DNA of 32,000 bases from Candidatus Hermodarchaeota archaeon (GTDB lineage Archaea; Asgardarchaeota; Heimdallarchaeia; Hodarchaeales; Hodarchaeaceae): NCBI GenBank assembly GCA_048886185.1, contig JBHLKY010000002.1:202359-234358 (forward strand), given 5' to 3'. The number at the start of each line of letters is the position of its first letter. The stretch's first letter is position 1. This document shows, piece after piece, positions 18,380 to 31,648 of this stretch. Under the pieces are notes generated by a model. That model did not search any database, was not told where the DNA came from, and was given only the letters and a program-made list of their open reading frames with translations. Position numbers and translations under genes: made by a program.

Positions 18380-18916
18380 TTAAATATTTGACAGTGTATT
18401 AAGAAGCTCGTCAGTACCCATTAAATCTGCGAAGTAGCTACCAAGAACAGTGTTATGATGTTTTATTATTTGCTTTGCTGAAAAATGCTTAGAATGCCAT
18501 GTGCTGTGACAGTCCTTTACAAGTGTTACATCATACCCCAAGCTGTAAGCTCGTCTTACAGTCGTATCAATACAGTATTCTGTTTGAAGACCAATTACTA
18601 TGACTTTTTTCACGTTCATTGATTTCAATAATTCATCCAAATTCGTTTGGTGAAATGAATCAGGTGTTGTCTTCTGAAGAACAGGCTCCTTGTGATTTGG
18701 TCTAACCTTTGGATGAATTTCCCATCCTTCAGATCCAGATTCATCTGGATCACCCTTTTCACCCATATTTTGAATATAAATGACTTTGTGTCCCATTTTT
18801 CTGGCTTTATTTAGAATTTTTTTAGCATTCTCAAGTAATAGATCACCTTGGAATATTGGAGGTGATCCAACGAAATTTCCAACCTGTAAATCGATGATTA
18901 TTAGTGCTACAGTCAT
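18380..18916 (-). CDS. Cysteine hydrolase (isochorismatase/nicotinamidase family)
   Basis: Asp-Lys-Cys triad in IIDLQ, LQKT.PDSF..T.L and GLQTEYCIDTT. Confidence 0.92.
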   Translation of the reverse strand: MTVALIIIDLQVGNFVGSPPIFQGDLLLENAKKILNKARKMGHKVIYIQNMGEKGDPDESGSEGWEIHPKVRPNHKEPVLQKTTPDSFHQTNLDELLKSMNVKKVIVIGLQTEYCIDTTVRRAYSLGYDVTLVKDCHSTWHSKHFSAKQIIKHHNTVLGSYFADLMGTDELLNTLSNI

Positions 18917-19001
18917 GAGATCATTTCTCTCCTTGATATTATATTTAAAAAAGAAGTTAAGACTCTTTCTTATATTGTTTTCAAGGATAATGCATGATAC
19001 C

Positions 19002-19655
19002 TTATGACTCTTTCTTCCATAGATATTCTATGTAATTAGCAGTATTACACGCAACTTCTTCCCCAACAAGTTCAGAAACTAAAAATAGACTCATATCAAT
19101 CCCAGCTGCTACTCCAGCAGAAATCACAATCTTTCCTTGTCCTGTGACAACAAATCGTTTACCTTGCATTACATGGACCTTAGGATAGGTTTTTCTCATC
19201 CGTTCGATACTTGCCCAGTGAGTTGTAGACTCAAAACCGTCTAATAGACCAGCCTCGGCGAGAAGAAAACTCCCTGTGCATACACTCGCCATCAACTGAA
19301 CTTTTTCCCATTGAGTCCTCAACCATTCAATTAAAACAAAGTTTTTTACTTCTTTTCGGGTTCCCCATCCTCCTGGAACCAAGACAAGATCAAATTTCGG
19401 ATGATTATTAAAATCATAATCTGTATCAACTTTTAGGTCACCACGACATTTTATTAGGCCACCATTTTCAGATATTAGCCTAACAGAAAAAGGGCATTTA
19501 TCAGTTCGCTGATTTTTTGTATCCAAGAATCTAGCAACAGAGAAAACCTCAAAAGGTCCACAAAAATCTAAAACCTCAACTTGTTCAAACACTAGAATCC
19601 CTACAATCCATGGAATATTTTCACGAGGTAATTTTATCACGTTTAAGCTTTTCAA
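19002..19655 (-). CDS. DJ-1/PfpI (ThiJ/InhA-like) family protein
   Basis: EVLDFCGPFEVF, LVPGG.G, nucleophile SVCTGSFLLAEAGLLDG..TTHW, SAGVAAGIDM. Confidence 0.92.
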   Translation of the reverse strand: MKSLNVIKLPRENIPWIVGILVFEQVEVLDFCGPFEVFSVARFLDTKNQRTDKCPFSVRLISENGGLIKCRGDLKVDTDYDFNNHPKFDLVLVPGGWGTRKEVKNFVLIEWLRTQWEKVQLMASVCTGSFLLAEAGLLDGFESTTHWASIERMRKTYPKVHVMQGKRFVVTGQGKIVISAGVAAGIDMSLFLVSELVGEEVACNTANYIEYLWKKES

Positions 19656-19685
19656 TAAACCATCTCAATCAATTGTTAGAGTGAC

Positions 19686-20900
19686 TTATTTATGCAATTT
19701 TAGATCTTTGCTAAAGAATAAAAAACTTATAATCAAGAAAAGCCCGAATAAAGTGGATAAACCACTTAGAATAAAGGCTGCATCTAAATTTGAAAAGAAA
19801 TCTGCAATAATACCAAATGTTATGGAACCAATCCCGAAACCTGTAGCTAATCCAGTACCAAATACCCCCATTGCTAACCCCCGCTCCTCACGTTTTGTGT
19901 CTACTGCAACGAGAGAGATTAACGAAGGATAGATGATACCAAAGCCAAATCCCGCGAAAAAAAGTGGAATTATTACAACGATTGGGTCTGTGATTACTGG
20001 TGTGATCATGATACCAACCCCAATGCAGGTTATCCCTAAAAACATGTTAAACCTATTGCCTATCAACCCAGTAATTCTTGCTGTCAATAAACGACTGAGT
20101 AGCGCACTAATATCTCGAAATGCCAACAATATCCCTATCTCCAATGAGAATAACCCTAATCCCCTAAGAAATAACGGATGGAAGGAAACCCCAACACTGT
20201 AGCTCAATGTCATCAGAAAAGATCCAAAAGTTGCTAATGCAACATTTCTCTTGTTACGAAAAAGGTAGATACCTTTAGAGTAACTTTCAAGAATCCCCTT
20301 CTTCTTCTGAATAAATACTTTATTAGGTTCCTGATCTCTTATTCTCTGATTTCTCCTCAAAAGAAGAAGAGTCGAAAAAAATCCTACCACAGCAAGGCAC
20401 GTGAAAGCCACGAAAACAGATTCATAATTAATATGATCAATTAGCATCCCAGCAATCGGGGGACCAGTCAATTGGCCTAATCCTGTGATCGCTAAATAAT
20501 GTCCCATAATCTGAGGCCTTTCACTCTCACTCCCTAATTCTGAGATATATGCGGGTTCTGTTACGCGAAATGACGCTGCTGTAAGTCCCCACAACATCTG
20601 CGCAGGTAGAAATAGAAGAACTTGTTTCATGACCATCCCTATGAAGAATGTCACTCCTGAAGCCAATCCAAGAATAAATGAAATACCATAAAAAAGTTCC
20701 CAACCAAACATGTCAGCACTTTCTCCCATTGGCATACGGAGTCCTGATTGAATTATTGCCCTTGTACTTGCTATTAATCCTACTAATGCTGTCGTAGCCC
20801 CCAAAGCACTAGCTGCTAATGGCACTGTTGGACTTAATAGACCTAACATGGTAGTATATATAGTACCAATACATATAATCAAGAAAAAATCCGTATTCAA
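19686..20900 (-). CDS. MFS transporter
   Basis: About 12 TM helices in two halves, P.G..AD..G motif A, GP..AG, ERGLAMG.F. TTG start. Confidence 0.9.
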   Translation of the reverse strand: MNTDFFLIICIGTIYTTMLGLLSPTVPLAASALGATTALVGLIASTRAIIQSGLRMPMGESADMFGWELFYGISFILGLASGVTFFIGMVMKQVLLFLPAQMLWGLTAASFRVTEPAYISELGSESERPQIMGHYLAITGLGQLTGPPIAGMLIDHINYESVFVAFTCLAVVGFFSTLLLLRRNQRIRDQEPNKVFIQKKKGILESYSKGIYLFRNKRNVALATFGSFLMTLSYSVGVSFHPLFLRGLGLFSLEIGILLAFRDISALLSRLLTARITGLIGNRFNMFLGITCIGVGIMITPVITDPIVVIIPLFFAGFGFGIIYPSLISLVAVDTKREERGLAMGVFGTGLATGFGIGSITFGIIADFFSNLDAAFILSGLSTLFGLFLIISFLFFSKDLKLHK

Positions 20901-20980
20901 CCTTTATTATTTCCTCTCTAGTATTTTTCCAATAAAAGGTTACAATTTCTCTTAAATTCCGATATAGACTGCTCAGTAAC

Positions 20981-22033
20981 TTAACCAATAACTTTTTTCA
21001 TGATATTCAACGCATTTCCGCTCAGGATTTTTTCTATTTCTTGATCACTATAACCTCTGGAAACTAAACCTCGGGTAATATTGGGCCATTCTTCGGGACT
21101 TTCGATGCCTGCCATATATGGGGCATTTAATTCTTGCCCTGTACGCTCCAGAAAGAAAACGGTTCTAGCTGCTTGACGATGATATTCGACTTGATCCTCA
21201 AAAACATTATCTAATCCTATTGCACATTTGTCGTTTCCTATTAAATCTACAATGTAGTCAACATGATTTAATAGGTCATCAATCCCTTGTTCAGGTTTAT
21301 TACTCAGCTGATTGGGAATAGCAGAGACACCAGCGATTCCCCCCTTCTCTGCTAAGGCTTTGAGCTCTTCATCGGTCTTTAAGCGCTTACATTGTGGATG
21401 AAGGGCCCTTGCTCCGACATGGTTGGCGATTACGGGATCCTTGGATGACTCAATTGTATCAAGGGTGGTCTGGACACCCACATGAGAAAGATCGATCAAC
21501 ATCCCAACTTTATTCATCCGTTCGACCAAATCGATCCCAAAGTAAGACAATCCTTGGTTGGTACGTTCCCCACACCCGTCACCAACGTACGTTCGTGTAT
21601 TGAATGTAAGTAAAGCCATCCGGATTCCAAGTCCATAAGCGACATCTATATTATCAAGGTCTTTTCCAAACGTCTGAGGTTCAAGCTGAAACATGGTGGC
21701 TATTTTTCCCTCCTGTTTTGCGCGTCTAAAGTCCTCAGACTTGAATGCAGGCATAAAATCTGGATGTTTGATTACACGTTGTATCAAGTATCCTAGTTCA
21801 TCCATTGATTTCTGAAAGTATTCATGAATTGCTGCAATAGCCTCTACAAATCCTGTTACACCAGAGTTCTTGATTCTAGGCACAATGAAGTCTTCATCAG
21901 GCAGAATGTGTGAATGAAGGTCAATTGTAATGATCTTTTTGTGTAGCTCATCAGCTCGTTCTTCATCTACTTTATCAAGTTTAATAAAACGTTCTTTGAG
22001 AGGTAACTTCAAATATTCTTCAAGTGGGAGCAT
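20981..22033 (-). CDS. Membrane dipeptidase (M19) family amidohydrolase, copy 1 (subtype A)
   Basis: DLHSH, QLEP, LTFN, GLSYFG..LVERMN..GMLIDLSH, NH, GLDN, GY....I.KI..GN. Start set at ATG 22033 (MLPLEEY) by alignment with the paralogs; the track's 22105 start overlaps copy 2. Confidence 0.88.
   Translation of the reverse strand: MLPLEEYLKLPLKERFIKLDKVDEERADELHKKIITIDLHSHILPDEDFIVPRIKNSGVTGFVEAIAAIHEYFQKSMDELGYLIQRVIKHPDFMPAFKSEDFRRAKQEGKIATMFQLEPQTFGKDLDNIDVAYGLGIRMALLTFNTRTYVGDGCGERTNQGLSYFGIDLVERMNKVGMLIDLSHVGVQTTLDTIESSKDPVIANHVGARALHPQCKRLKTDEELKALAEKGGIAGVSAIPNQLSNKPEQGIDDLLNHVDYIVDLIGNDKCAIGLDNVFEDQVEYHRQAARTVFFLERTGQELNAPYMAGIESPEEWPNITRGLVSRGYSDQEIEKILSGNALNIMKKVIG
21361..21553. repeat. 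Near-identical tract shared with 23571-23763 (8 mismatches in 193 nt)
   Basis: Manual alignment at offset 2210 nt. Confidence 0.9.
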
Positions 22034-22085
22034 ATTATACCTTCCTATAAAATTGAATGGAGTGAGAGGAAACCGAATTCTCTCA

Positions 22086-23162
22086 CTACCCAATGACTCT
22101 CTCAATTATTTTCATTGCATTCACCCCGATAATCTTCCGAATCTCTTCATCAGAGTATCCTTCGGACACTAAACCACGAACTATATTTTTCCATTCATGT
22201 GGACCTTCAATACCAAATAGATAATCACCTTTTAGCTGTATTCCAGATTTTTCGAAATTTCTAGAAGCTGCCATCCTTCTGTGCCCAGCTACTTGGTCAC
22301 GAAATACATTATCCAAACCGATAGCAACGTGGTCGATTCCAACAAGGTTGATACAATAGTTGATGTGCTTGAGATGATCTTCAATTCCTTGATCTACGTC
22401 GAAAGAAAGTTGATTAGGAATAGCACTTATTCCTATTAGCCCTTTTTTCTCGGCAACAGCTTGTAATTCCTCATCATTTCGTAACCGTTTGCAAGGTGGA
22501 TTCAAAGCTCGTGCTCCTGCGTGGTTAAAGACACATGGCTCTTTTGAATGTTCAATTGCGTCCAAAGATGTCTGGATCCCAGAGTGACTTAAATCAATGA
22601 GCATCCCAATTTTATTCATACGTTCAACGAGTTCAAGCCCTAAATAACTAAGACCTGCATTGGTTCTCTCTGCAATACCATCACCGATATAGTTTCTAGT
22701 GTTGAAAGACAGCAAAGCCATTCTTATTCCAAGTCCATAAGCGATCTCCACCCTATCAAGATTCCTACCAAACGTGTTCGGCTCTAATTGAAAAAGTACA
22801 GCTTGTTGGCTATTTTCTTTTGCTTTTCTTATATCATCTGCTTTAAAGGCTGGCACTAGACTTGGTTCTTTCTCAGTAATTGCGAGATACTTGCCTAGAA
22901 TGTCCATAGATTCAGTGAAATTCTCTGAAAGTGTTGGGACTGCTTCAAAACAACCTTCGACACCCATTTGATGGGTGAGATTAAGTTTTTGCTCGTTCCA
23001 CTCGAATATCACTGATCCGAATATATGAGTATGTAAATCGACCTTTAATGACTTTTTAAAGAGTTCCTCTGCTCGCTCTGATTCTGATGAGCTTAATTTT
23101 ACGTACTTTTCTTCTTCTGAAAGTGCTAAATACTGCTCGCGACTAAAACCTCGGTTTGTCAT
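22086..23162 (-). CDS. Membrane dipeptidase (M19) family amidohydrolase, copy 2 (subtype B)
   Basis: DLHTHIFGS, FEAVP, QLEP, LSFN, DLSH, FNH, GLDN. Probable ATG 23162 after GGTGG (track start 23177). Confidence 0.88.
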   Translation of the reverse strand: MTNRGFSREQYLALSEEEKYVKLSSSESERAEELFKKSLKVDLHTHIFGSVIFEWNEQKLNLTHQMGVEGCFEAVPTLSENFTESMDILGKYLAITEKEPSLVPAFKADDIRKAKENSQQAVLFQLEPNTFGRNLDRVEIAYGLGIRMALLSFNTRNYIGDGIAERTNAGLSYLGLELVERMNKIGMLIDLSHSGIQTSLDAIEHSKEPCVFNHAGARALNPPCKRLRNDEELQAVAEKKGLIGISAIPNQLSFDVDQGIEDHLKHINYCINLVGIDHVAIGLDNVFRDQVAGHRRMAASRNFEKSGIQLKGDYLFGIEGPHEWKNIVRGLVSEGYSDEEIRKIIGVNAMKIIERVIG

Positions 23163-23190
23163 TAGATGTATTACCACCTTTTTGTGATCG

Positions 23191-24246
23191 CTACCCTACC
23201 ACTCTTTCTAATATAGAAAGAGCGTTTCCTGATAGAATTTTCTCAATTTCATTGTCATTGTACCCTCTTTGAACTAGTCCACGAGTAATATTCTGAAATT
23301 CCTCTGGATTTTCAATTCCATACATATACGGAGCGTTCAATCCTTGCCCAATATATGAAAGTTTGAATATTGTTCTAGCAGCTTCGCGATGGAATCCAAC
23401 TTGATCCCCAAACGTGTTATCAAGTCCAATGGCAACATTATTAATACCAATTAAGTTCACCATATAGTCTAGATGGTCAAGAAAAGTCTCGATCCCCTGT
23501 TCTTCCTCACTACTGAGTTGATTGGGAATAGCAGAGACTCCAGCGATCCCTCCCTTCTCTGCCAGAGCTTTGAGCTCTTCATCGGTCTTTAAGCGTTTAC
23601 ATTGCGGATGAAGGGCCCTTGCTCCGACATGGTTGGCAATTACGGGATCCTTGGATGTCTCAATTGTATCAAGGGTGGTCTGGACTCCCACATGAGAAAG
23701 ATCGATCAACATCCCGACTTTATTCATCCGTTCGACCAGATCGACCCCAAAGTAAGACAATCCTTCATTAGTTCGTTCCCCACACCCGTCACCTGCATAT
23801 GTTCGTGTATTGAAAGTAAGCAAAGCCATTCGAATTCCAAATCCATAGGCAATATCCACATTGTCTAGGTTTTTACCAAAGGTTTGAGGTTCGAGTTGAA
23901 ATAGTACAGCCATTTTTCCCTCCTTTTTGGCGCGTCTAAAGTCCGCAACTTTGAATGCAGGCATGAAATCTGGATGATTATGCACTCTTTTTAAGAAAGA
24001 TCCTAAAGTTTCCATAGACTCTTGAAAATTTTCAGCAACACCAGCAACAGCTTCAAACCAGCCACAGACACCTGAATTTTTGATACGATCAACGATGAAA
24101 TACCTATCCATTAAAATATGAGAATGCATGTCAATAGAAATCAGCTTCTCATGTAATTCTTCAGCTCTTTCTTCCTCTGCTTTGTCTAGCTTAATAAAGC
24201 GCTCCTTTAAAGGTAATTTCAAATATTCTTCTCTTGAAATCAACAT
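23191..24246 (-). CDS. Membrane dipeptidase (M19) family amidohydrolase, copy 3 (subtype A)
   Basis: DMHSH, QLEP, LTFN, DLSH, ANHVG, GLDN. GGAG RBS directly after the stop of copy 4. Confidence 0.9.
   Translation of the reverse strand: MLISREEYLKLPLKERFIKLDKAEEERAEELHEKLISIDMHSHILMDRYFIVDRIKNSGVCGWFEAVAGVAENFQESMETLGSFLKRVHNHPDFMPAFKVADFRRAKKEGKMAVLFQLEPQTFGKNLDNVDIAYGFGIRMALLTFNTRTYAGDGCGERTNEGLSYFGVDLVERMNKVGMLIDLSHVGVQTTLDTIETSKDPVIANHVGARALHPQCKRLKTDEELKALAEKGGIAGVSAIPNQLSSEEEQGIETFLDHLDYMVNLIGINNVAIGLDNTFGDQVGFHREAARTIFKLSYIGQGLNAPYMYGIENPEEFQNITRGLVQRGYNDNEIEKILSGNALSILERVVG
23571..23763. repeat. Second copy of the near-identical tract (see 21361-21553)
   Basis: Manual alignment. Confidence 0.9.
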
Positions 24247-24255
24247 TAACTCTCC

Positions 24256-25326
24256 TTAACCAACTACTTGCTCAATTATACGAAGTGCATTTCCACCAAT
24301 TATTTTTTGAACCTCTTCGTCACTAAATCCCCTTTTAACTAAACCCCGAATAATATTAGGCCAATCACTAGGGGACTCTAAACCGTAAATATAATCCGCT
24401 GCAAGTATTATTCCAGCACGTTCTAGATTAACAGTCTTTTCAGCAGCCAATTTTCTATGAAAGGCCACTTGATCATGAAACGTATTATCCAAGCCTATCC
24501 CTACATGATCAACACCTACTAGATTAGCTACGTACTCAATATGATTTATATGATCGTCAATACTCTGTTCTGGTTCACAAGAGAGTTGATTGGGAATAGC
24601 GGAGACTCCAAAAACTCCACCTTTCTCTGCTAACGCTTTTATTTCATCGTCTTTTCTCAAACGCCCAACTGGCTCGTTTAGCGTACGTGCTCCGCTGTGA
24701 TTGAAAAGGCAGGGATCTTTCGAGTGTTCAATTGCATCCAGAGCAGTCTGGACTCCACAATGGCTCAAATCGATCAGGATTCCCGTCTTGTTTAAGCGTT
24801 CGACAAGTTCCAACCCCAAATAGCTGAGTCCCGCGTTTGTTTTTTCCGCGCAGCCGTCCCCTATGTATGTTCGAGTATTGAAGGTGAGTAAGATCATCCG
24901 AAACCCGAGGCCATAGGCTACTTCGACAAGATCCAGATTTCTTCTTCCACTCCAGGGCTCTAATTGATACAGTACGGCCTGTTTGCCCTCTAACTTTGCT
25001 TTTTTGATGTCACTGGCCGTATATGCTGAGACAAATCCAGGTTCTTTTTCGACAATATTTTTGTAGGTTCCCAAAATAGCTGTGGTCTCAGCAAAGTCTT
25101 CATTCAAGCACGGAACAGCTTCGAAGCATCCATTAATCCCACTACTTTGGACTTGTTCTCTTATGTCTGAATTCCATTCAAAATGAATGGAGCCAAAAAT
25201 ATGGGTATGCAAATCGATTTTTATGCTCTTCTCAAAGAGTTCGTTGGCTCTTTCTTTCTCAGAAGAGCTGAGTTGTACAAATCTCTCTTCAGGATCAAGA
25301 GAGAGATATTCGTCTCTCGATATCAA
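24256..25326 (-). CDS. Membrane dipeptidase (M19) family amidohydrolase, copy 4 (subtype B)
   Basis: DLHTHIFGS, FEAVP, QLEP, LTFN, DLSH, FNH, GLDN. TTG start after GAGG. Confidence 0.9.
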   Translation of the reverse strand: MISRDEYLSLDPEERFVQLSSSEKERANELFEKSIKIDLHTHIFGSIHFEWNSDIREQVQSSGINGCFEAVPCLNEDFAETTAILGTYKNIVEKEPGFVSAYTASDIKKAKLEGKQAVLYQLEPWSGRRNLDLVEVAYGLGFRMILLTFNTRTYIGDGCAEKTNAGLSYLGLELVERLNKTGILIDLSHCGVQTALDAIEHSKDPCLFNHSGARTLNEPVGRLRKDDEIKALAEKGGVFGVSAIPNQLSCEPEQSIDDHINHIEYVANLVGVDHVGIGLDNTFHDQVAFHRKLAAEKTVNLERAGIILAADYIYGLESPSDWPNIIRGLVKRGFSDEEVQKIIGGNALRIIEQVVG

Positions 25327-25468
25327 CCTTTAATACCTCGTATGTTAGAAATTGTTTTGAAAATGGTTATTTTTTATTTTTTCTAAAGTTTTTCCCTAAA
25401 CTTATTTTATAAACTGAAAGTATTGGCGGAAAGTTTTTTACTTATAGCAAGATCATAATACTGATCTC

Positions 25469-27241
25469 TTGATATCAATGAACTCTGATATCAGAGAGAA
25501 TCATAAAAGAAAAATAGGTGAGAACGGTTTGCCGTTCACAAATGGTATAAAATGTAAATCATACCTCAAAATTGGAGTTTTAACGCTCCTTTTGGTGCTT
25601 GCTTCAGTTTCTGTCATTCCCATTAATGCTCAGGATGAATATAGATTCGAGTTTAAACTAATTTACGGTGCTGGACGCTACGCTATGGACAAACAGATAG
25701 TAGAAACTATCCAATCTTTCTTAGCTGATGTTAATGTCAAAATGACGATTGAATCCCGTGATTGGGCTTCATTTTCAGCTGCTCAAAGAGAAAGTAATAT
25801 TACAAAATTAACACAGGATTTCCAAGCGTGGTTTGTAGGTTTCGGAAATCCTTGGATGAACGCAGATGGTGCATTGAAAAACTTCATCTCTCAAAGAGGA
25901 CTAGAGCCTCTATTATACAACAATTCGTATTATGATGATTTATTCTTTGCATCAAGAAAGGAAGCTGATGAGACAGAACTGATGAAAATGTACAAGGAGA
26001 TGAATGATATTATCATGACAGACGCTCCTTGGATATTCATTGCGATTGAACCCAATCTCCATGCTGCTCGTGGAGTCGAAAACATCACAACATGGCATGA
26101 TGAGTCAGTGATCGTTTCTGGAGCTTATTCAAAAACATCAAATGATACACTAACTCTCTCTCTAGGAACAGAACCCTCAAAATTTGATCCACAACATACA
26201 AGCGGAATGTCCAACCTTGGCATTATTCGTCTCGTTACAGAGACTCTAGTCAGCTTAGATCAGGATACAGGTGATGTTGTACCAGTATTAGCAACCTCTT
26301 GGTCAACTGACAGTAAAGCAGAGAACTGGTTGATCAATATTCGTCAGGGTGTGAAATTTCATGATGGTTCCGAATTAACAGCTGAAGATGTTAAATACAC
26401 TCTCTGGGATCGATTATCAGATCCTAACAGTGGAGCTCTAGCACAGGCATCCTTTGGTCCTCCAGCTGGTCCAATAACAAACATCACAGTCGTTGATACA
26501 TATACTATCAAAGTCGAAACCATTGGTTTTGCGGCATTGATGCCCTTCTTTAACTATCAGCCTTCAGAGATTGTTTCCAAGGGTCGATGTGAAGATCTAG
26601 CAAAAACAAACGAGACAGTCCCCTGCGAAGACTTTCAGAATAATCCATCTGGAACTGGTCCATACAAGTTCGTAGAGTGGGTTAAAGGTGATCATATAAC
26701 ACTAGAGCGAAATGAAGATTATTGGGGCAAAAAACCCGCCTTTGAGACAATCATCATGAAAAAGATAACAGATTCTGCCTCTCGAGTCTCTGCATTACTA
26801 GCTGGTGATGTAAACTACATACATCAAGCCCCAACAACTGATGTTGGGACATTAAAAGATGATCCAGATGTCTATCTTATTAATGCAGCTTCAGTTCGTA
26901 TGATGCACATTGGATTAAATCATAATTTTGAGATCTTCCAAAATAGGAAAGTGAGACAAGCTCTGAACTATGCGGTCAATCAAACAAAAATGGTCGAAAC
27001 ACTCTATGAGGGTTATGGATCCCCCATGATAGACACTATGATGGCACCTAACGCCTATGGGGTTCAGCAAGGTAATATTAGCTATGAACAGGACGTAGAG
27101 AAAGCTAAAGACCTCTTAGATGAAGCTGGATACCCTGTTCCTGGCGCTGGGGCACCAGGATTTGAAACTCCAATTGTATTAATAACAATGATTCTTGTGG
27201 TAAGTCTAGGATGGAATTCTCGCCGCAAATCAAAGAAGTAG
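25469..27241 (+). CDS. dppA: ABC transporter family-5 (peptide/nickel) solute-binding protein, circularly permuted, with signal peptide and C-terminal PGF-CTERM-like anchor
   Basis: FDP, E.LV..D, P.LA.SW, GVKFHDG..LTAEDVKYT, GTGPYK, LERN..YWG, VRQALNYA, EKAK.LL.EAGY and DAPWIF are all present but reordered. Ends PGFE-TM-RRKSKK. True start may be TTG 25529 (GGTGA upstream). Confidence 0.92.
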   Translation: MISMNSDIRENHKRKIGENGLPFTNGIKCKSYLKIGVLTLLLVLASVSVIPINAQDEYRFEFKLIYGAGRYAMDKQIVETIQSFLADVNVKMTIESRDWASFSAAQRESNITKLTQDFQAWFVGFGNPWMNADGALKNFISQRGLEPLLYNNSYYDDLFFASRKEADETELMKMYKEMNDIIMTDAPWIFIAIEPNLHAARGVENITTWHDESVIVSGAYSKTSNDTLTLSLGTEPSKFDPQHTSGMSNLGIIRLVTETLVSLDQDTGDVVPVLATSWSTDSKAENWLINIRQGVKFHDGSELTAEDVKYTLWDRLSDPNSGALAQASFGPPAGPITNITVVDTYTIKVETIGFAALMPFFNYQPSEIVSKGRCEDLAKTNETVPCEDFQNNPSGTGPYKFVEWVKGDHITLERNEDYWGKKPAFETIIMKKITDSASRVSALLAGDVNYIHQAPTTDVGTLKDDPDVYLINAASVRMMHIGLNHNFEIFQNRKVRQALNYAVNQTKMVETLYEGYGSPMIDTMMAPNAYGVQQGNISYEQDVEKAKDLLDEAGYPVPGAGAPGFETPIVLITMILVVSLGWNSRRKSKK

Positions 27242-27292
27242 AACATAGCTAACAAACCTCCCATAGTACACCACTTAGGAAAACTCCCCTGA

Positions 27293-27331
27293 ATGTTGTC
27301 CTCACCAAGGTGAGGACAGCATTTTTTTTTT
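27293..27331 (+). terminator. Long hairpin followed by a T10 tract after the binding-protein gene
   Basis: ATGTTGTCCTCACC-AA-GGTGAGGACAGCAT (one G-U pair), then TTTTTTTTTT. Confidence 0.75.
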
Positions 27332-27588
27332 CAAAATTATTTGAAAAAAGTAGGTATAACAAGCTTTAAAATCAAAAAGAAAATTTACTACTACAGAAAG
27401 TTACCTAATAAAGATCAGTCAAGAAAGAAGATTCTTATCTTTGATTACAGAGTTAATCACTTGAAGAAAGAGCAATATTTCCATATAATAGATTTTTATC
27501 TATTCCTCGCCAATATTAAGAATCCAAAATTGTAAAAGATACCCATTGAAAGCTACCCATATAAAATTAATTGAGATTGGTATATCTA

Positions 27589-28632
27589 ATGAAAGAAACT
27601 GACTCTCTACTAAGAATAAAGAACCTTTCTACTCATTTTTTTACATATTCTGGTGTGGTCAAGGCACTAGATGCCATAAATTTAGAAATAGCAAAGGATA
27701 AAGATTCTCTTGGCCTTGTTGGAGAAACAGGTTGTGGTAAGAGTGTTACTGCGTTATCAGTTATGAGACTGATTCCACAACCCCCTGGGCGTATTGTCCA
27801 AGGTGAAGTCTGGTTTGACGGCCAAGATCTGTTGAAAAAGAACGAGAAGTACATGCAACGAGAGATACGAGGCAAAAGAATTTCTATGATATTTCAGGAA
27901 CCTATGACATCACTTAATCCTGTTATTCGTGTAGGAGACCAAATCACAGAGGCCCTCTTGCTTCATCCTGAAATTAATGGAAATGATACATCTTCTTCGA
28001 TAAAAATTGAGGATCTTTCCAAGCCAACACGTAAAAGGTTAAAACGAGAGTCCAAGGAGCGTGCTGTTGAACTGCTTGATCTAACAGGAATTCCAGATCC
28101 AGAGGAAGTAGCATTTAGATATCCACATCAGTTAAGTGGAGGAATGCGCCAACGCGTAATGATTTCAATGGCTTTAGCTTGTAATCCGGAGCTACTCATA
28201 GCTGATGAACCCACTACAGCTCTTGATGTTACCATTCAAGCTCAGATTCTATCTTTAATCAAGAAATTAAGGGAAAAATTTGGGATTTCCCTTATGCTTA
28301 TTACTCATCATTTAGGTTTGGTTTCAGCAATGTGTAATAGGGTGGCAGTGATGTATGCGGGTACAATTATTGAATATACAGATCTTAGATCCCTCTTTAA
28401 CAATCCCATTCATCCTTATACAAGAGGTTTATTGAAGTGCATCCCTCGGTTAGGTGGAGAGAGAGGAAAACAACTAAGTACAATTCACGGTACAGTTCCA
28501 GATCTGATAAATCCTCCAACAGGATGTAGATTTCATCCCCGTTGCGACGAACGAAACTCAAAATGTGGAAGAAATAAGCCCTCTTTTGTAGAGGCTGAAA
28601 AAGGGCACTTTGTTTCCTGTAATAAGTGTTAG
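27589..28632 (+). CDS. dppD: Oligo/dipeptide ABC transporter ATPase (DppD/OppD type)
   Basis: [56 protein letters not shown]. Probable start ATG 27589 (track TTG 27571). Confidence 0.95.
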
Positions 28633-28707: not shown

Positions 28708-29670
28708 TTGTTACGGGTTAGAAACCTAAAAACCTACTTTCCAATTAAAGCTGGAGTCTTAAGAAGAACTGTGGGTTGGGTACGAGCTGTTGATAATATC
28801 GATTTTGACATCAACAGGGGAGAGATTCTAGGATTGGTAGGAGAATCCGGTTGTGGAAAAACTACTGTCGGTAGGGTCATATTGATGTTGGAAAAGGCTA
28901 CATCAGGGGAGATCTGGTTTGATGGGAAGAATCTGACAAAGATGAAGAGATGGAAGCTGAGAAAACAAAGAAGACAGATGATGATGGTTTTTCAGGATCC
29001 TTTTTCTTCGTTAAATCCTCGTATGACCGTGAAAAGAATCATCGGAGAGCCACTTCTTATTAACAAGTATTGTCCCAAACATGAGATAAGGAATAGAGTT
29101 ATAGAACTGTTGAATAATGTAGGCTTAAAGGAAGAGCACCTAGATCGGTATCCTCACGAATTTTCGGGAGGCCAGCGTCAGCGAATCTGTGTAGCGCGTG
29201 CCCTTGCTTTAAATCCGAGTCTAATAGTTCTCGATGAACCAACTTCGGCACTTGACGTATCAGTTCAGTCCCAAGTCCTCAACTTGTTCAAAAAACTACT
29301 ATTAGACTATGGTCTTTCTTATTTATTTATCTCTCATGATCTAGCTGTTATTGAATATATGAGTGATCGAATATGTGTAATGTATGTTGGAAAGATTGTA
29401 GAACAGGGCCTTACCAAAACAATTTACAAGAATCCAGCGCACCCCTATACGAAGGCATTAATGTCAGCAATCTTAGAACCAAATCCTGAAATAGAACGAG
29501 AACAAATCATACTCAAGGGAGATGTTCCTAGCCCAGCAAATCCCCCCTCAGGATGCAGGTTTCATCCTCGTTGCTGGTTAACAAAACCTATATGCAGTGA
29601 AAAAGATCCATCTTTTGTAAATTTAGGAGGTAAGCATGTAGCTGCGTGTTGGGCATTGGAAGAGTCTTAA
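28708..29670 (+). CDS. dppF: Oligo/dipeptide ABC transporter ATPase (DppF/OppF type)
   Basis: [56 protein letters not shown]. Start codon uncertain. Confidence 0.95.
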   Translation: MLRVRNLKTYFPIKAGVLRRTVGWVRAVDNIDFDINRGEILGLVGESGCGKTTVGRVILMLEKATSGEIWFDGKNLTKMKRWKLRKQRRQMMMVFQDPFSSLNPRMTVKRIIGEPLLINKYCPKHEIRNRVIELLNNVGLKEEHLDRYPHEFSGGQRQRICVARALALNPSLIVLDEPTSALDVSVQSQVLNLFKKLLLDYGLSYLFISHDLAVIEYMSDRICVMYVGKIVEQGLTKTIYKNPAHPYTKALMSAILEPNPEIEREQIILKGDVPSPANPPSGCRFHPRCWLTKPICSEKDPSFVNLGGKHVAACWALEES

Positions 29671-29711: not shown

Positions 29712-30635
29712 GTGATGAAATTGACTACTATTGATAAAGTAGTAAAGGAAAAAAAAGTTTCAAAGTTACCTTTGACACTATATAAGTTCCAGAAAAACAA
29801 ACGTGCAGTATTTGGACTTGCTGTGCTCCTAATAATTTTTATAATTGCTTTATTTGCTCTAGATCCTTGGGGACGTCCTTTACTAGTCCCTTATGATCCA
29901 TATGGACATCTTCCAACATCTGAAGGATTAGATCGAAGGGGAGAACTCCCCTCAGGGCAGCATATCTTAGGACTTGACGAACTTGGAAGGGATCTCCTCA
30001 GCAGAATTATGGTAGGGTGTCGAATCTCCATTACAATAGGATTTGTTTCTGTTTCCATTGCTTTGGTAATCGGGGTCATTTTCGGCTCTATTTCTGGTTA
30101 TTTTGGGAGTTGGGTAGACCACATCCTAATGAGGATTATAGATATTATGATGTCATTCCCTGCTTTCTTATTAGCTCTAATAATCATTGCAATCTTAGGA
30201 CCAACACTTCAAAATGCAATGGTGGCTATTGGTATTGCACTAATTCCCGTGTATGCGCGATTAACTCGAGGACAAGTCATTTCAATAAAGGAAAACGACT
30301 ATGTTGAGGCAGCAAGAATGGTGGGAGCCAGAGATTGGAGAATTATTATATGGCATATCTTACCTAATGCTATCGCTCCTCTTATTGTCCAATCTACCCT
30401 CAACTTCGCTAGTGCAATCCTCTCTGCAGCCGCTTTAGGCTATCTAGGTCTTGGAGCTCAACCACCCACTCCAGAATGGGGTGTTATGCTTAACGATGGA
30501 AGACATTACTTGTTGTCTGGAGCTCTTCACTTATCCTTGTTTCCTGGATTAGCTATTATGATCACTGTATTAGCCTTCAATTTAGTTGGGGACGGTATTA
30601 GAGACGCTTTCGATCCTAGAATGGTGAGTGAATAA
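29712..30635 (+). CDS. dppC: Oligo/dipeptide ABC transporter permease (DppC/OppC type)
   Basis: HILGLDELGRDLLSR, EAA loop ENDYVEAARMVGA, HILPN, L.YLGLG..PP.PEWG.ML, GDGIRDAFDP. Confidence 0.95.
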   Translation: MMKLTTIDKVVKEKKVSKLPLTLYKFQKNKRAVFGLAVLLIIFIIALFALDPWGRPLLVPYDPYGHLPTSEGLDRRGELPSGQHILGLDELGRDLLSRIMVGCRISITIGFVSVSIALVIGVIFGSISGYFGSWVDHILMRIIDIMMSFPAFLLALIIIAILGPTLQNAMVAIGIALIPVYARLTRGQVISIKENDYVEAARMVGARDWRIIIWHILPNAIAPLIVQSTLNFASAILSAAALGYLGLGAQPPTPEWGVMLNDGRHYLLSGALHLSLFPGLAIMITVLAFNLVGDGIRDAFDPRMVSE

Positions 30636-31648
30636 TGTCATTCATATCTTTCTTAATTAGGAGAATATTACTAGTCATTCCAGTCTTTTTTGCTGTATCT
30701 TTTATTGTTTTTTTAATGATTCGTATGATTCCTGGTGATCCTGCCCTTCTCCTTGTCCCAGAAGACGCCCCACCAGAACAAGTGGATTATCTTCGTGAAA
30801 GATGGGGATTAAATAAGCCTATTCATGAGCAGTATCTTACTTTCGTATCAAATCTTTTACGAGGAGATTTTGGAAAGTCAATTCGAACAGGTAGACCTGT
30901 TATTGAGGAAATTATACCACGATTCAGGAATACCATATTCTTGGCGAGTTCAGCTTGTTTAATCGCTATAGTTGTTGGAGGAATTGCAGGAGTTATTTCT
31001 AGTACAAGACCTTACTCGAAGATTGACAATATTGCAATGATAGCAGCAATGATAGGAGTTTCTGCTCCAGCATTCTGGCTTGGCCTCATGTTGATGTGGC
31101 TGGTAGCTGTTGAATTAAAGGTTCTTCCTGCAGTTGGCACTGGTGATTATGGCCATCTTTTCTCTCTCATTCCAGGACTCTTCTATCCCCCTGGCTCAAC
31201 ATTATCAGAATTCCTCGATGAATTAACAAATTCTATTAGACATTTAATAATGCCAGCAGTCACTCTTTCAGCCTTTTTAATGGCTGTTCTTGCACGACAA
31301 ACACGTTCAGCAATGCTGGAAATCCTGGCTAGTGATTACATTAGAACAGCCCGAGCAAAAGGAGCATCTGATTCAAGAGTGATTTTTCGTCATACTCTAA
31401 AGAATGCGATGATCCCAGTTCTCACAGTAGCAGGAGTTGCTTTTGGTACAATGTTAGGTGGATCCATTGTTGTAGAAACTGTATTTGAATATAATGGCCT
31501 AGGACAATACATGATAGATTCAATTCACACTAGAGACTATCCTGTTATACAAGCTGTCATCCTTTGGTACGCTTTGATCTTTACAGGAGTCAACCTCTTA
31601 GTAGACATCATCTATGGATGGTTAGATCCACGAATAGTTTATGATTAA
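30635..31648 (+). CDS. dppB: Oligo/dipeptide ABC transporter permease (DppB/OppB type)
   Basis: IPGDPA, WGLNKP..EQY, GDFG.S, DYIRTARAKGA, H.LKNA.IP, GGSIVVETVF..GLG, RDYPVIQ, LDPRI. Its ATG shares base 30635 with the dppC stop. Confidence 0.95.
   Translation: MSFISFLIRRILLVIPVFFAVSFIVFLMIRMIPGDPALLLVPEDAPPEQVDYLRERWGLNKPIHEQYLTFVSNLLRGDFGKSIRTGRPVIEEIIPRFRNTIFLASSACLIAIVVGGIAGVISSTRPYSKIDNIAMIAAMIGVSAPAFWLGLMLMWLVAVELKVLPAVGTGDYGHLFSLIPGLFYPPGSTLSEFLDELTNSIRHLIMPAVTLSAFLMAVLARQTRSAMLEILASDYIRTARAKGASDSRVIFRHTLKNAMIPVLTVAGVAFGTMLGGSIVVETVFEYNGLGQYMIDSIHTRDYPVIQAVILWYALIFTGVNLLVDIIYGWLDPRIVYD

Follow-up and report, generated by a model that had tools for sequence, protein, structure and literature searches.

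How did a solute-binding protein come to carry the last third of its chain in front of the first two thirds, and does the new order matter? The question is raised by an open reading frame at 25469-27241 of the window, a 32,000-nucleotide stretch of DNA from Candidatus Hermodarchaeota archaeon (GenBank assembly GCA_048886185.1, contig JBHLKY010000002.1, positions 202,359 to 234,358 of the forward strand). The frame encodes a family-5 binding protein of an ATP-binding cassette (ABC) importer. Binding proteins of this kind have a textbook conserved bilobate fold and serve as the chassis of many biosensors. The best overall explanation, and in our judgement a highly probable one, is that the gene encodes a functional-looking natural circular permutant of a cluster-C (SBP_bac_5, DppA/GsiB-like) binding protein, which acts as the receptor of an importer and has kept both of its targeting signals. 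The initial annotation had proposed such a permutation and had given it a purpose, that of moving the C-terminus so that the protein could be tethered through a C-terminal anchor. The permutation and the joining of the old termini have held up; the purpose is contradicted by orthologues of canonical order that are anchored already.

Residues are numbered either on the whole 590-amino-acid frame (P0001) or on the 570-amino-acid database protein (P0002). The parts of the gene are as follows.

25469-27241, plus strand: complete reading frame for the permuted family-5 binding protein, 590 amino acids from TTG 25469, with the stop at 27239-27241
25529-25630, plus strand: N-terminal signal peptide MPFTNGIKCKSYLKIGVLTLLLVLASVSVIPINA, read from the sequences, with predicted cleavage at INA/Q55 of P0001
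25631-26128, plus strand: segment B, P0001 55-220, QDEY-RFEFKLIYGAGRY ... DAPWIF ... SGAY, equivalent to the C-terminal third of canonical family-5 proteins
26129-26143, plus strand: new joint SKTSN, P0001 221-225, between the canonical C-terminus (..SGAY) and the N-terminal strand (DTLTLSLG)
26144-27133, plus strand: segment A, P0001 226-555, DTLTLSLGTEPSKFDP ... GVKFHDG ... GTGPY ... VRQALNYA ... EKAKDLLDEAGY, equivalent to the canonical N-terminal two thirds
27134-27238, plus strand: C-terminal tail PVPGAGA-PGF-ETPIVLITMILVVSLGWN-SRRKSKK, in which a short spacer leads into a PGF motif, followed by a hydrophobic helix and a basic end

Translation probably starts at TTG 25529, where the orthologues also begin and which has GGTGA (25517-25521) in front of it; this start yields the 570 residues of P0002, and ATG 25478 is an alternative. 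Segment B comprises most of domain III and the final strands that go back to domain I. The motif NDTLTL begins at base 26141, and segment A ends with EKAKDLLDEAGY at residue 555 of P0001.

Swapped segments in a predicted family-5 fold

The only Pfam family detected in the protein is PF00496 (SBP_bac_5), which matches at 280.7 bits against a cut-off of 32.4 and does so in two stretches, the better of them aligning residues 270-559 with positions 2-282 of the 368-position profile. Searched with phmmer, 94 PDB sequences match the protein at E<=0.001, and the order of the matches is reversed: residues 219-556 correspond to 37-360 of 5u4o and residues 76-211 to 377-508 of the same chain, with 6hlx and 6ofq displaying the same swap. 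Segment B searched by itself (P0002:36-205) finds only C-terminal thirds (351-485 of 509 in 1uqw, 376-508 of 521 in 5u4o). Canonical proteins of the family, among them Escherichia coli GsiB/YliB (1uqw) and DppA (1dpp/1dpe), the Bacillus anthracis protein 5u4o, AccA and NikA, are homologous to both segments and share the operon type, with OppB/C-like permeases and oligo_HPY ATPases, but differ in chain order, their last third being the first part of the window protein. The canonical order is found in all 115 next-best database homologues (115/115). A collinear alignment of the whole protein to the family, from its N-terminal to its C-terminal strands, fails, and this is the sole departure from the family.

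These results bear out the initial reading of the chain, which had put a C-terminal-like segment first (residues about 55-220) and the usual N-terminal part from about residue 225; its coordinates and motifs are all correct. The profile alignment that it suggested as a check returns PF00496 in two stretches, and the phmmer and segment searches reveal the swapped order. It had named a collinear full-length alignment to DppA/OppA as grounds for refutation. None was obtained, the structural aligners covering only residues 166-505 of the model described below.

The fold was predicted with AlphaFold (AF2) from an input alignment that combined natural B-first proteins with canonical homologues divided into A and B fragments, so that both segments had depth while all sequences were left unaltered. 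The model of P0002 36-540 has a mean predicted local distance difference test (pLDDT) score of 93.9 and a predicted template-modelling score (pTM) of 0.91, with pLDDT 87-94 across the new joint. In Foldseek and VIA-align comparisons, the top PDB chains align to residues ~166-505 of the model over their own first ~320-345 residues (Z 24-28). Segment A is placed on 1uqw 3-322 (Z 27.9, root-mean-square deviation 2.2) and on 1dpe 1-342. Among the best Foldseek matches no solved chain is collinear with the whole model, aligned columns amounting to ~345-370 of 505 and TMq to 0.45-0.57. A control model of the canonical orthologue from a related genome (G014, introduced below) is of similar quality (pLDDT 92.2, pTM 0.90), and its helices and strands all recur in the permuted model, one to one, after a shift of +165 for A and -340 for B. 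A bilobate three-domain fold is thus predicted on the grounds of pTM, secondary-structure mapping and the segment A match. The structure prediction that had been recommended as a further check has given a confident fold in which the joint SKTSN links the canonical termini.

Taken together, the protein has the properties that define a natural circular permutant: two homologous segments in reversed order, the old termini joined and, by prediction, the fold kept. Alignments, models and secondary-structure mapping support a true circular permutation in which the canonical termini are joined by a short SGAY-SKTSN-DTLTL linker, as the initial annotation had suspected of its SGAYSKTS. By homology the protein is a family-5 member and a new topological variant of that family.

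In the alignment to DppA the cut falls after residue ~342 of the mature protein. Domain III of DppA, which we take to span about 263-478, would then contain the cut, which would leave the hinge strands aside. In the model the chain is opened in a domain III surface loop that connects the '..LL.EAGY' helix with the strand after it; no hinge strand is cut, and the normal helices and strands are all predicted to be kept. Because the cut lies inside domain III, both the free N-terminus and the 7-residue tether at the other end would exit from domain III rather than from domain I, where the canonical tether leaves at the end of the domain.

The case also carries a warning for annotation, as a complete protein of this kind shows up as two partial profile matches and reaches a structure-search TM of only ~0.5.

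A canonical orthologue and the origin of the swap

A reversed order might be an artefact, either an assembly chimera or a gene-calling error that joined the two pieces of a normal gene the wrong way round, and the source is indeed a metagenome-assembled genome of 75 contigs. Against this, the same order is present in four species-level genomes of one Thorarchaeota-like genus (G000, G001, G006 and G016, among 61 related genomes searched) and in five protein clusters from different sources (NCBI, JGI, Logan), which are 77-100% identical to the query and collinear with it over 93-97% of its length. Run-level Logan contigs from two other studies, 95-99% identical, bridge all of the joints, that is, signal peptide to B, B to A, and A to anchor.

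X5 record 6, 25818-26561: Logan contig bridging a joint
X6 record 10, 25922-26366: Logan contig bridging a joint
X5 record 5, 25332-25839: Logan contig bridging a joint
X5 record 7, 26897-27338: Logan contig bridging a joint

The frame is unbroken and under purifying selection, with ratios of nonsynonymous to synonymous substitution (dN/dS) between permuted orthologues of 0.088 (G000/G006) and 0.053 (G016/G001), the other pairs being synonymously saturated. No second close copy of the permuted gene was found in the source genome, and among the sequencing runs listed as holding the sequence none is of RNA. Misassembly is excluded, including at about 26100-26150, where the initial annotation had located the risk, and the probability left to any artefact is negligible. 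The taxonomic survey that it had called for gives the permuted form a narrow range: a 181-residue probe across the joint finds the junction-spanning form at E<=1e-25 in only 4 of 400 genomes of the phylum, the same four.

A fifth species of the genus, represented by G014, has at this locus a family-5 gene for 575 amino acids whose segments keep the normal order (L017 1408-3135). Its upstream neighbour is a divergently transcribed M19 dipeptidase gene, 90.7% identical to that of the window, and its downstream neighbour an ABC ATPase gene that is ~72% identical; the neighbourhood of a second canonical relative, P0007, matches that of G014. The window and G014 proteins are 61.1% identical in segment A and 62.6% in segment B, with the order swapped. 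From its N-terminus, the G014 protein reads signal peptide, LEPSDD-A-...AGYTVDPVTGN, RFEF-B-...SGAY, and LPSGGGI-PGF-TM-RRPKKRK (TM, transmembrane helix), the chain running directly from ...AGYTVDPVTGN into RFEFTLIYGAGRY. The window protein reads signal peptide, QDEY, RFEF-B-...SGAY, SKTSN, DTLTL-A-...EAGY, and PVPGAGA-PGF-TM-SRRKSKK. The two thus share locus, signal peptide type, PGF anchor with its 7-residue spacer and identical predicted secondary-structure elements, but the G014 protein has A before B.

The signals at either end have counterparts in the canonical proteins. Judged from the sequences, the signal peptide of the window protein is similar to that of its canonical orthologues (YLKI..LLL.L...AQ), and three canonical proteins (those of G014, P0007 and P0008) carry a homologous signal peptide together with a homologous anchor of PGF, transmembrane helix and basic end, set off by the same 7-residue spacer. 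The export signal and the anchor therefore predate the swap and kept their ends, only the mature body having rotated. That rotation has brought the last ~165 residues to the front, followed by a 5-residue joint and then the first ~330 residues.

A tree was inferred from 5 permuted rows, re-ordered to the canonical arrangement before alignment, and 35 canonical relatives. The permuted rows form one clade (support 96 in the Shimodaira-Hasegawa-like approximate likelihood ratio test, SH-aLRT), whose sister is the canonical trio of G014, P0007 and P0008 (100), and the group uniting both (100) sits within the canonical proteins. As the permuted rows make up one clade nested in this way, the tree indicates a single origin of the swap within this genus, from an ancestor that possessed both signals. 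With a stem of 0.12, shorter than the 0.32 of the canonical trio, the permuted clade gives no hint that change sped up once the order had been swapped.

The simplest and probable route to the new order is that the mature region was duplicated in tandem and in frame (A-B-A-B), after which the first A and the last B were lost. Family-5 proteins with a fused A-B-A-B chain are known (P0125, P0126 and P0221), and P0124 contains four complete modules in one frame. As these are the kind of intermediate that such a route needs, duplication is plausible.

Tether position and the recurrence of permutants

The tail of the protein would be an archaeosortase-type sorting signal and a putative membrane anchor, reading as PGF followed by 18 hydrophobic residues and SRRKSKK. 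Two heimdallarchaeosortase genes are present in the genome (233.7 and 260.8 bits for NF045528 against a cut-off of 130).

L020:1447-2199, minus strand: heimdallarchaeosortase gene (NF045528)
L021:1114-1890, plus strand: heimdallarchaeosortase gene (NF045528)

The classical ArtA system was considered and rejected: the score for archaeosortase A (TIGR04125), 29.9 bits, falls short of its cut-off of 75, and the sortases of the genome are of the heimdall type. The tail of the canonical relative P0008 scores for both Loki-CTERM and Heimdall-CTERM, below the cut-off in each case.

The initial annotation held that the permutation had created the possibility of C-terminal anchoring. In the window protein the anchor does follow directly upon the '..DEAGY' helix at the end of the folded chain. 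Yet G014, P0007 and P0008 end in ..SGAY-LPSGGGI-PGF-TM-RRPKKRK, which makes the anchor older than the swap. Since canonical orthologues already carry a signal peptide and the same PGF-type anchor, the swap was not needed for tethering, and the proposal in this form is hardly credible.

A weaker form of the idea concerns where the tether leaves the protein. Selection may have favoured an exit from domain III, in place of lobe 1 (domain I), for the short tether and the free N-terminus, which would re-orient the protein towards its permeases or the S-layer. The distance from the last structured residue to PGF is only 7 residues in both forms, so the exit point should constrain orientation. Two proteins described below came independently to the same cut site: P0316, a bacterial protein with an N-terminal lipid, and a divergent paralogue from an Asgard archaeon that shares the anchor. 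Every permutant seen is tethered, by a lipobox or by a PGF-type tail. On the other side, the canonical sister orthologues share the anchor and spacer and are equally conserved, the permuted stem is the shorter one, without a burst of change, and nearly all binding proteins in the sampled groups are tethered anyway, so that the association carries little information. Adaptive re-tethering is accordingly regarded as unlikely, and a near-neutral swap as more likely than a change in docking.

The idea has been raised before, for the sugar-binding protein TpMglB-2 of Treponema pallidum (Tp0684), the published precedent for a naturally permuted ABC-type binding protein. This representative of 'cluster Bc' is membrane-tethered and still binds its ligand, and its authors asked whether tethering had favoured the new topology (PMC4990184). 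The likeness lies in being permuted and tethered; no homology to MglB was found in the window protein, PF00496 being the only family detected. TpMglB-2 is a type I, cluster B sugar binder, whereas the window protein belongs to family 5. TpMglB-2 also requires an additional, fourth hinge crossing, and its permuted part, at 13% identity, can hardly be aligned (PMC4990184). In the window protein, in contrast, both segments still share over 60% of their residues with a canonical orthologue, and the cut spares the hinge.

Periplasmic binding proteins have also been permuted by design. Engineered circular permutants are used in biosensors, where the bilobate fold tolerates new termini; these were made in the laboratory, for the most part from maltose-, ribose- or glutamate-type binders, and are not natural family-5 proteins. 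A permuted protein of family 5, the large peptide/nickel/opine class, was not described in the literature searched, including a 2026 survey of circular permutations, subscription journals lying mostly outside its coverage, which agrees with the initial annotation's claim of novelty for this family. The case is unusually clean, combining more than 60% identity in both segments, an orthologue of normal order at the same locus, retention of both signals and a cut site that recurs.

That recurrence is seen in two further proteins. P0316 (L108:163-1704) is a bacterial lipoprotein cut at the same loop as the window protein. It comes from one 17-kb contig, where it lies 163 nt from the end and supplies the only binding protein of a complete Opp-type operon. 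It is 88% identical to a canonical Dethiobacter-like protein and falls in a separate clade. The second is a B-first paralogue in the source genome itself (C10:60024-62210, plus strand), which is 22% identical to the window protein, has the same cut site (ending ..LALDWFETEGY) and bears a tail of GGAPGF, transmembrane helix and RKKNR. Given the 88% identity of P0316 to a canonical protein and the mere 22% between the C10 paralogue and the window protein, P0316 arose independently, and the paralogue represents the same permutation either acquired separately or dating from much further back. The joint between the old termini measures 5-8 residues in all three proteins. The loop after the '..LL.EAGY' helix is a permissive cut site, recurring in P0316 and in the C10 paralogue.

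A bolder reading, about which we are doubtful, is that evolution reuses a few preferred family-5 cut sites. The '..LL.EAGY' loop would have been hit independently at least three times (in the window clade, the divergent Asgard paralogue and the bacterial lipoprotein) and selected because a short tether that shifts from lobe 1 to domain III changes how the receptor is presented to the translocator. If this were so, the canonical and the permuted gene, which share a locus in sister species, would lend themselves directly to testing how tether geometry affects the function of an ABC importer. More generally, they form a clean natural pair with which to ask whether the connectivity of the chain and the position of the tether make a difference to folding, to ligand binding and to docking on the translocator, and they point to natural split and permutation sites, approved by evolution and experimentally unexplored, for the engineering of family-5 sensors.

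Other cut sites are in use as well. An exhaustive search of representatives lists one other B-before-A protein, P0134, which heads a group of bacterial lipoproteins (P0134, P0265-P0275 and P0280; 13 protein ids, 11 distinct clusters in the trees). In this group the cut comes before F.DVRVRQALNYA, at the domain I/III crossing, and each segment is 75-83% identical to canonical 'GsiB-like' proteins. Its members are the sole binding proteins of complete Opp-type operons, beside genes for gamma-glutamyltranspeptidase and M20 peptidase. The free tree intersperses canonical rows among them, and one origin is not rejected (approximately unbiased test, p 0.077).

An order-aware scan of the source genome found about six canonical family-5 open reading frames, the C10 paralogue and nine or ten frames cut otherwise. 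The latter (650-770 amino acids) are cut near position ~188 of the segment A profile, with positions ~188-317 near the N-terminus and ~3-187 near the C-terminus, and are located as follows.

C2:75523-88032: six otherwise-cut family-5 frames in tandem, ~115 kb upstream of the window on the same contig
C4:187229-189181: otherwise-cut family-5 frame
C32:32588-34897: otherwise-cut family-5 frame

A fold search of the ESM Atlas adds an archaeal cluster of 57 members (representative of 592 amino acids, mostly Thermoproteota labels) that is collinear with the whole model (TM 0.87 over 479 residues, root-mean-square deviation 2.6); it may belong to the window family, to that of the C10 paralogue or to a further origin. 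A look-up of P0002 in the same resource returned generic family-5 clusters only.

The importer operon and its neighbours

Importer genes of the Opp/Dpp type lie directly downstream of the permuted gene, and M19 genes upstream of it.

27571-28632, plus strand: ATPase with oligo_HPY C-terminal region (ABC_tran and oligo_HPY)
28708-29670, plus strand: ATPase with oligo_HPY C-terminal region (ABC_tran and oligo_HPY)
29712-30635, plus strand: OppC-type permease (OppC_N and BPD_transp_1)
30635-31648, plus strand: DppB/GsiC-type permease
20981-25326, minus strand: four tandem M19 (membrane dipeptidase family) genes, divergent from the binding-protein gene, an arrangement shared with relatives

By this gene content, the protein is the sole binding protein of a Dpp/Opp-type importer with a complete five-gene set. 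It would be exported by means of its N-terminal signal peptide and held at the membrane by the C-terminal archaeosortase-type signal (PGF, transmembrane helix and basic end). The family and the neighbouring genes suggest a dipeptide-type importer feeding the M19 dipeptidases: the ligand is most likely a dipeptide or a similar small amide, captured outside the cell and handed to the permeases, and the M19 dipeptidases, as cytoplasmic enzymes, are the likely consumers of the imported substrate.

The gene may conversely encode a decaying or non-transport protein, either a relic or a tethered sensor that is no longer a transporter subunit. Other family-5 paralogues of this genome do sit in arrays without transporter genes nearby. 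The permuted gene, however, supplies the one binding protein of an importer with all five genes and occupies the position of the canonical orthologue, its dN/dS is below 0.1, and its fold is confidently predicted, all of which makes such a loss of role very improbable.

The preferred account, of a functional-looking permutant that arose once and serves this importer, has several points to answer. In the model, the placement of B against A comes from AF2 confidence and not from superposition, and the AF2 alignment had ~10 misplaced tail residues in 44 fragment rows. The tail (27149-27229) matches Heimdall-CTERM (NF045529) at 21.8 bits, E 1.7e-4, just under the cut-off of 24. The canonical and permuted genes may be survivors of an old tandem pair and not strict orthologues. 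As to the duplication route, a search for longer proteins turned up no close fused A-B-A-B relative of the permuted clade, only two distant matches at 31-32% identity, and relics of the deleted segments were not found in the spacers 25327-25528 and 27242-27570, where scores stayed within the shuffled range. The substrate is read from the family and the neighbours only, and ligand, export, anchoring and transport are predictions. All of these weigh against the account to some degree.

The gap of 330 nt between the permuted gene and the first ATPase gene contains one further element, recognised by pattern match only.

27291-27334, plus strand: 15-bp GC-containing hairpin followed by eight T, ~50 nt past the stop

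The hairpin resembles a terminator, possibly an internal one, and could make the binding-protein mRNA more abundant than that for the other genes of the operon. On the other side of the locus, seven co-directional genes diverge from the importer (18380-25326, minus strand): the four M19 paralogues and one gene each for an MFS transporter, a DJ-1/PfpI protein and an isochorismatase-like hydrolase. In relatives the M19 genes number as many as six, which in L013 stand in a row.

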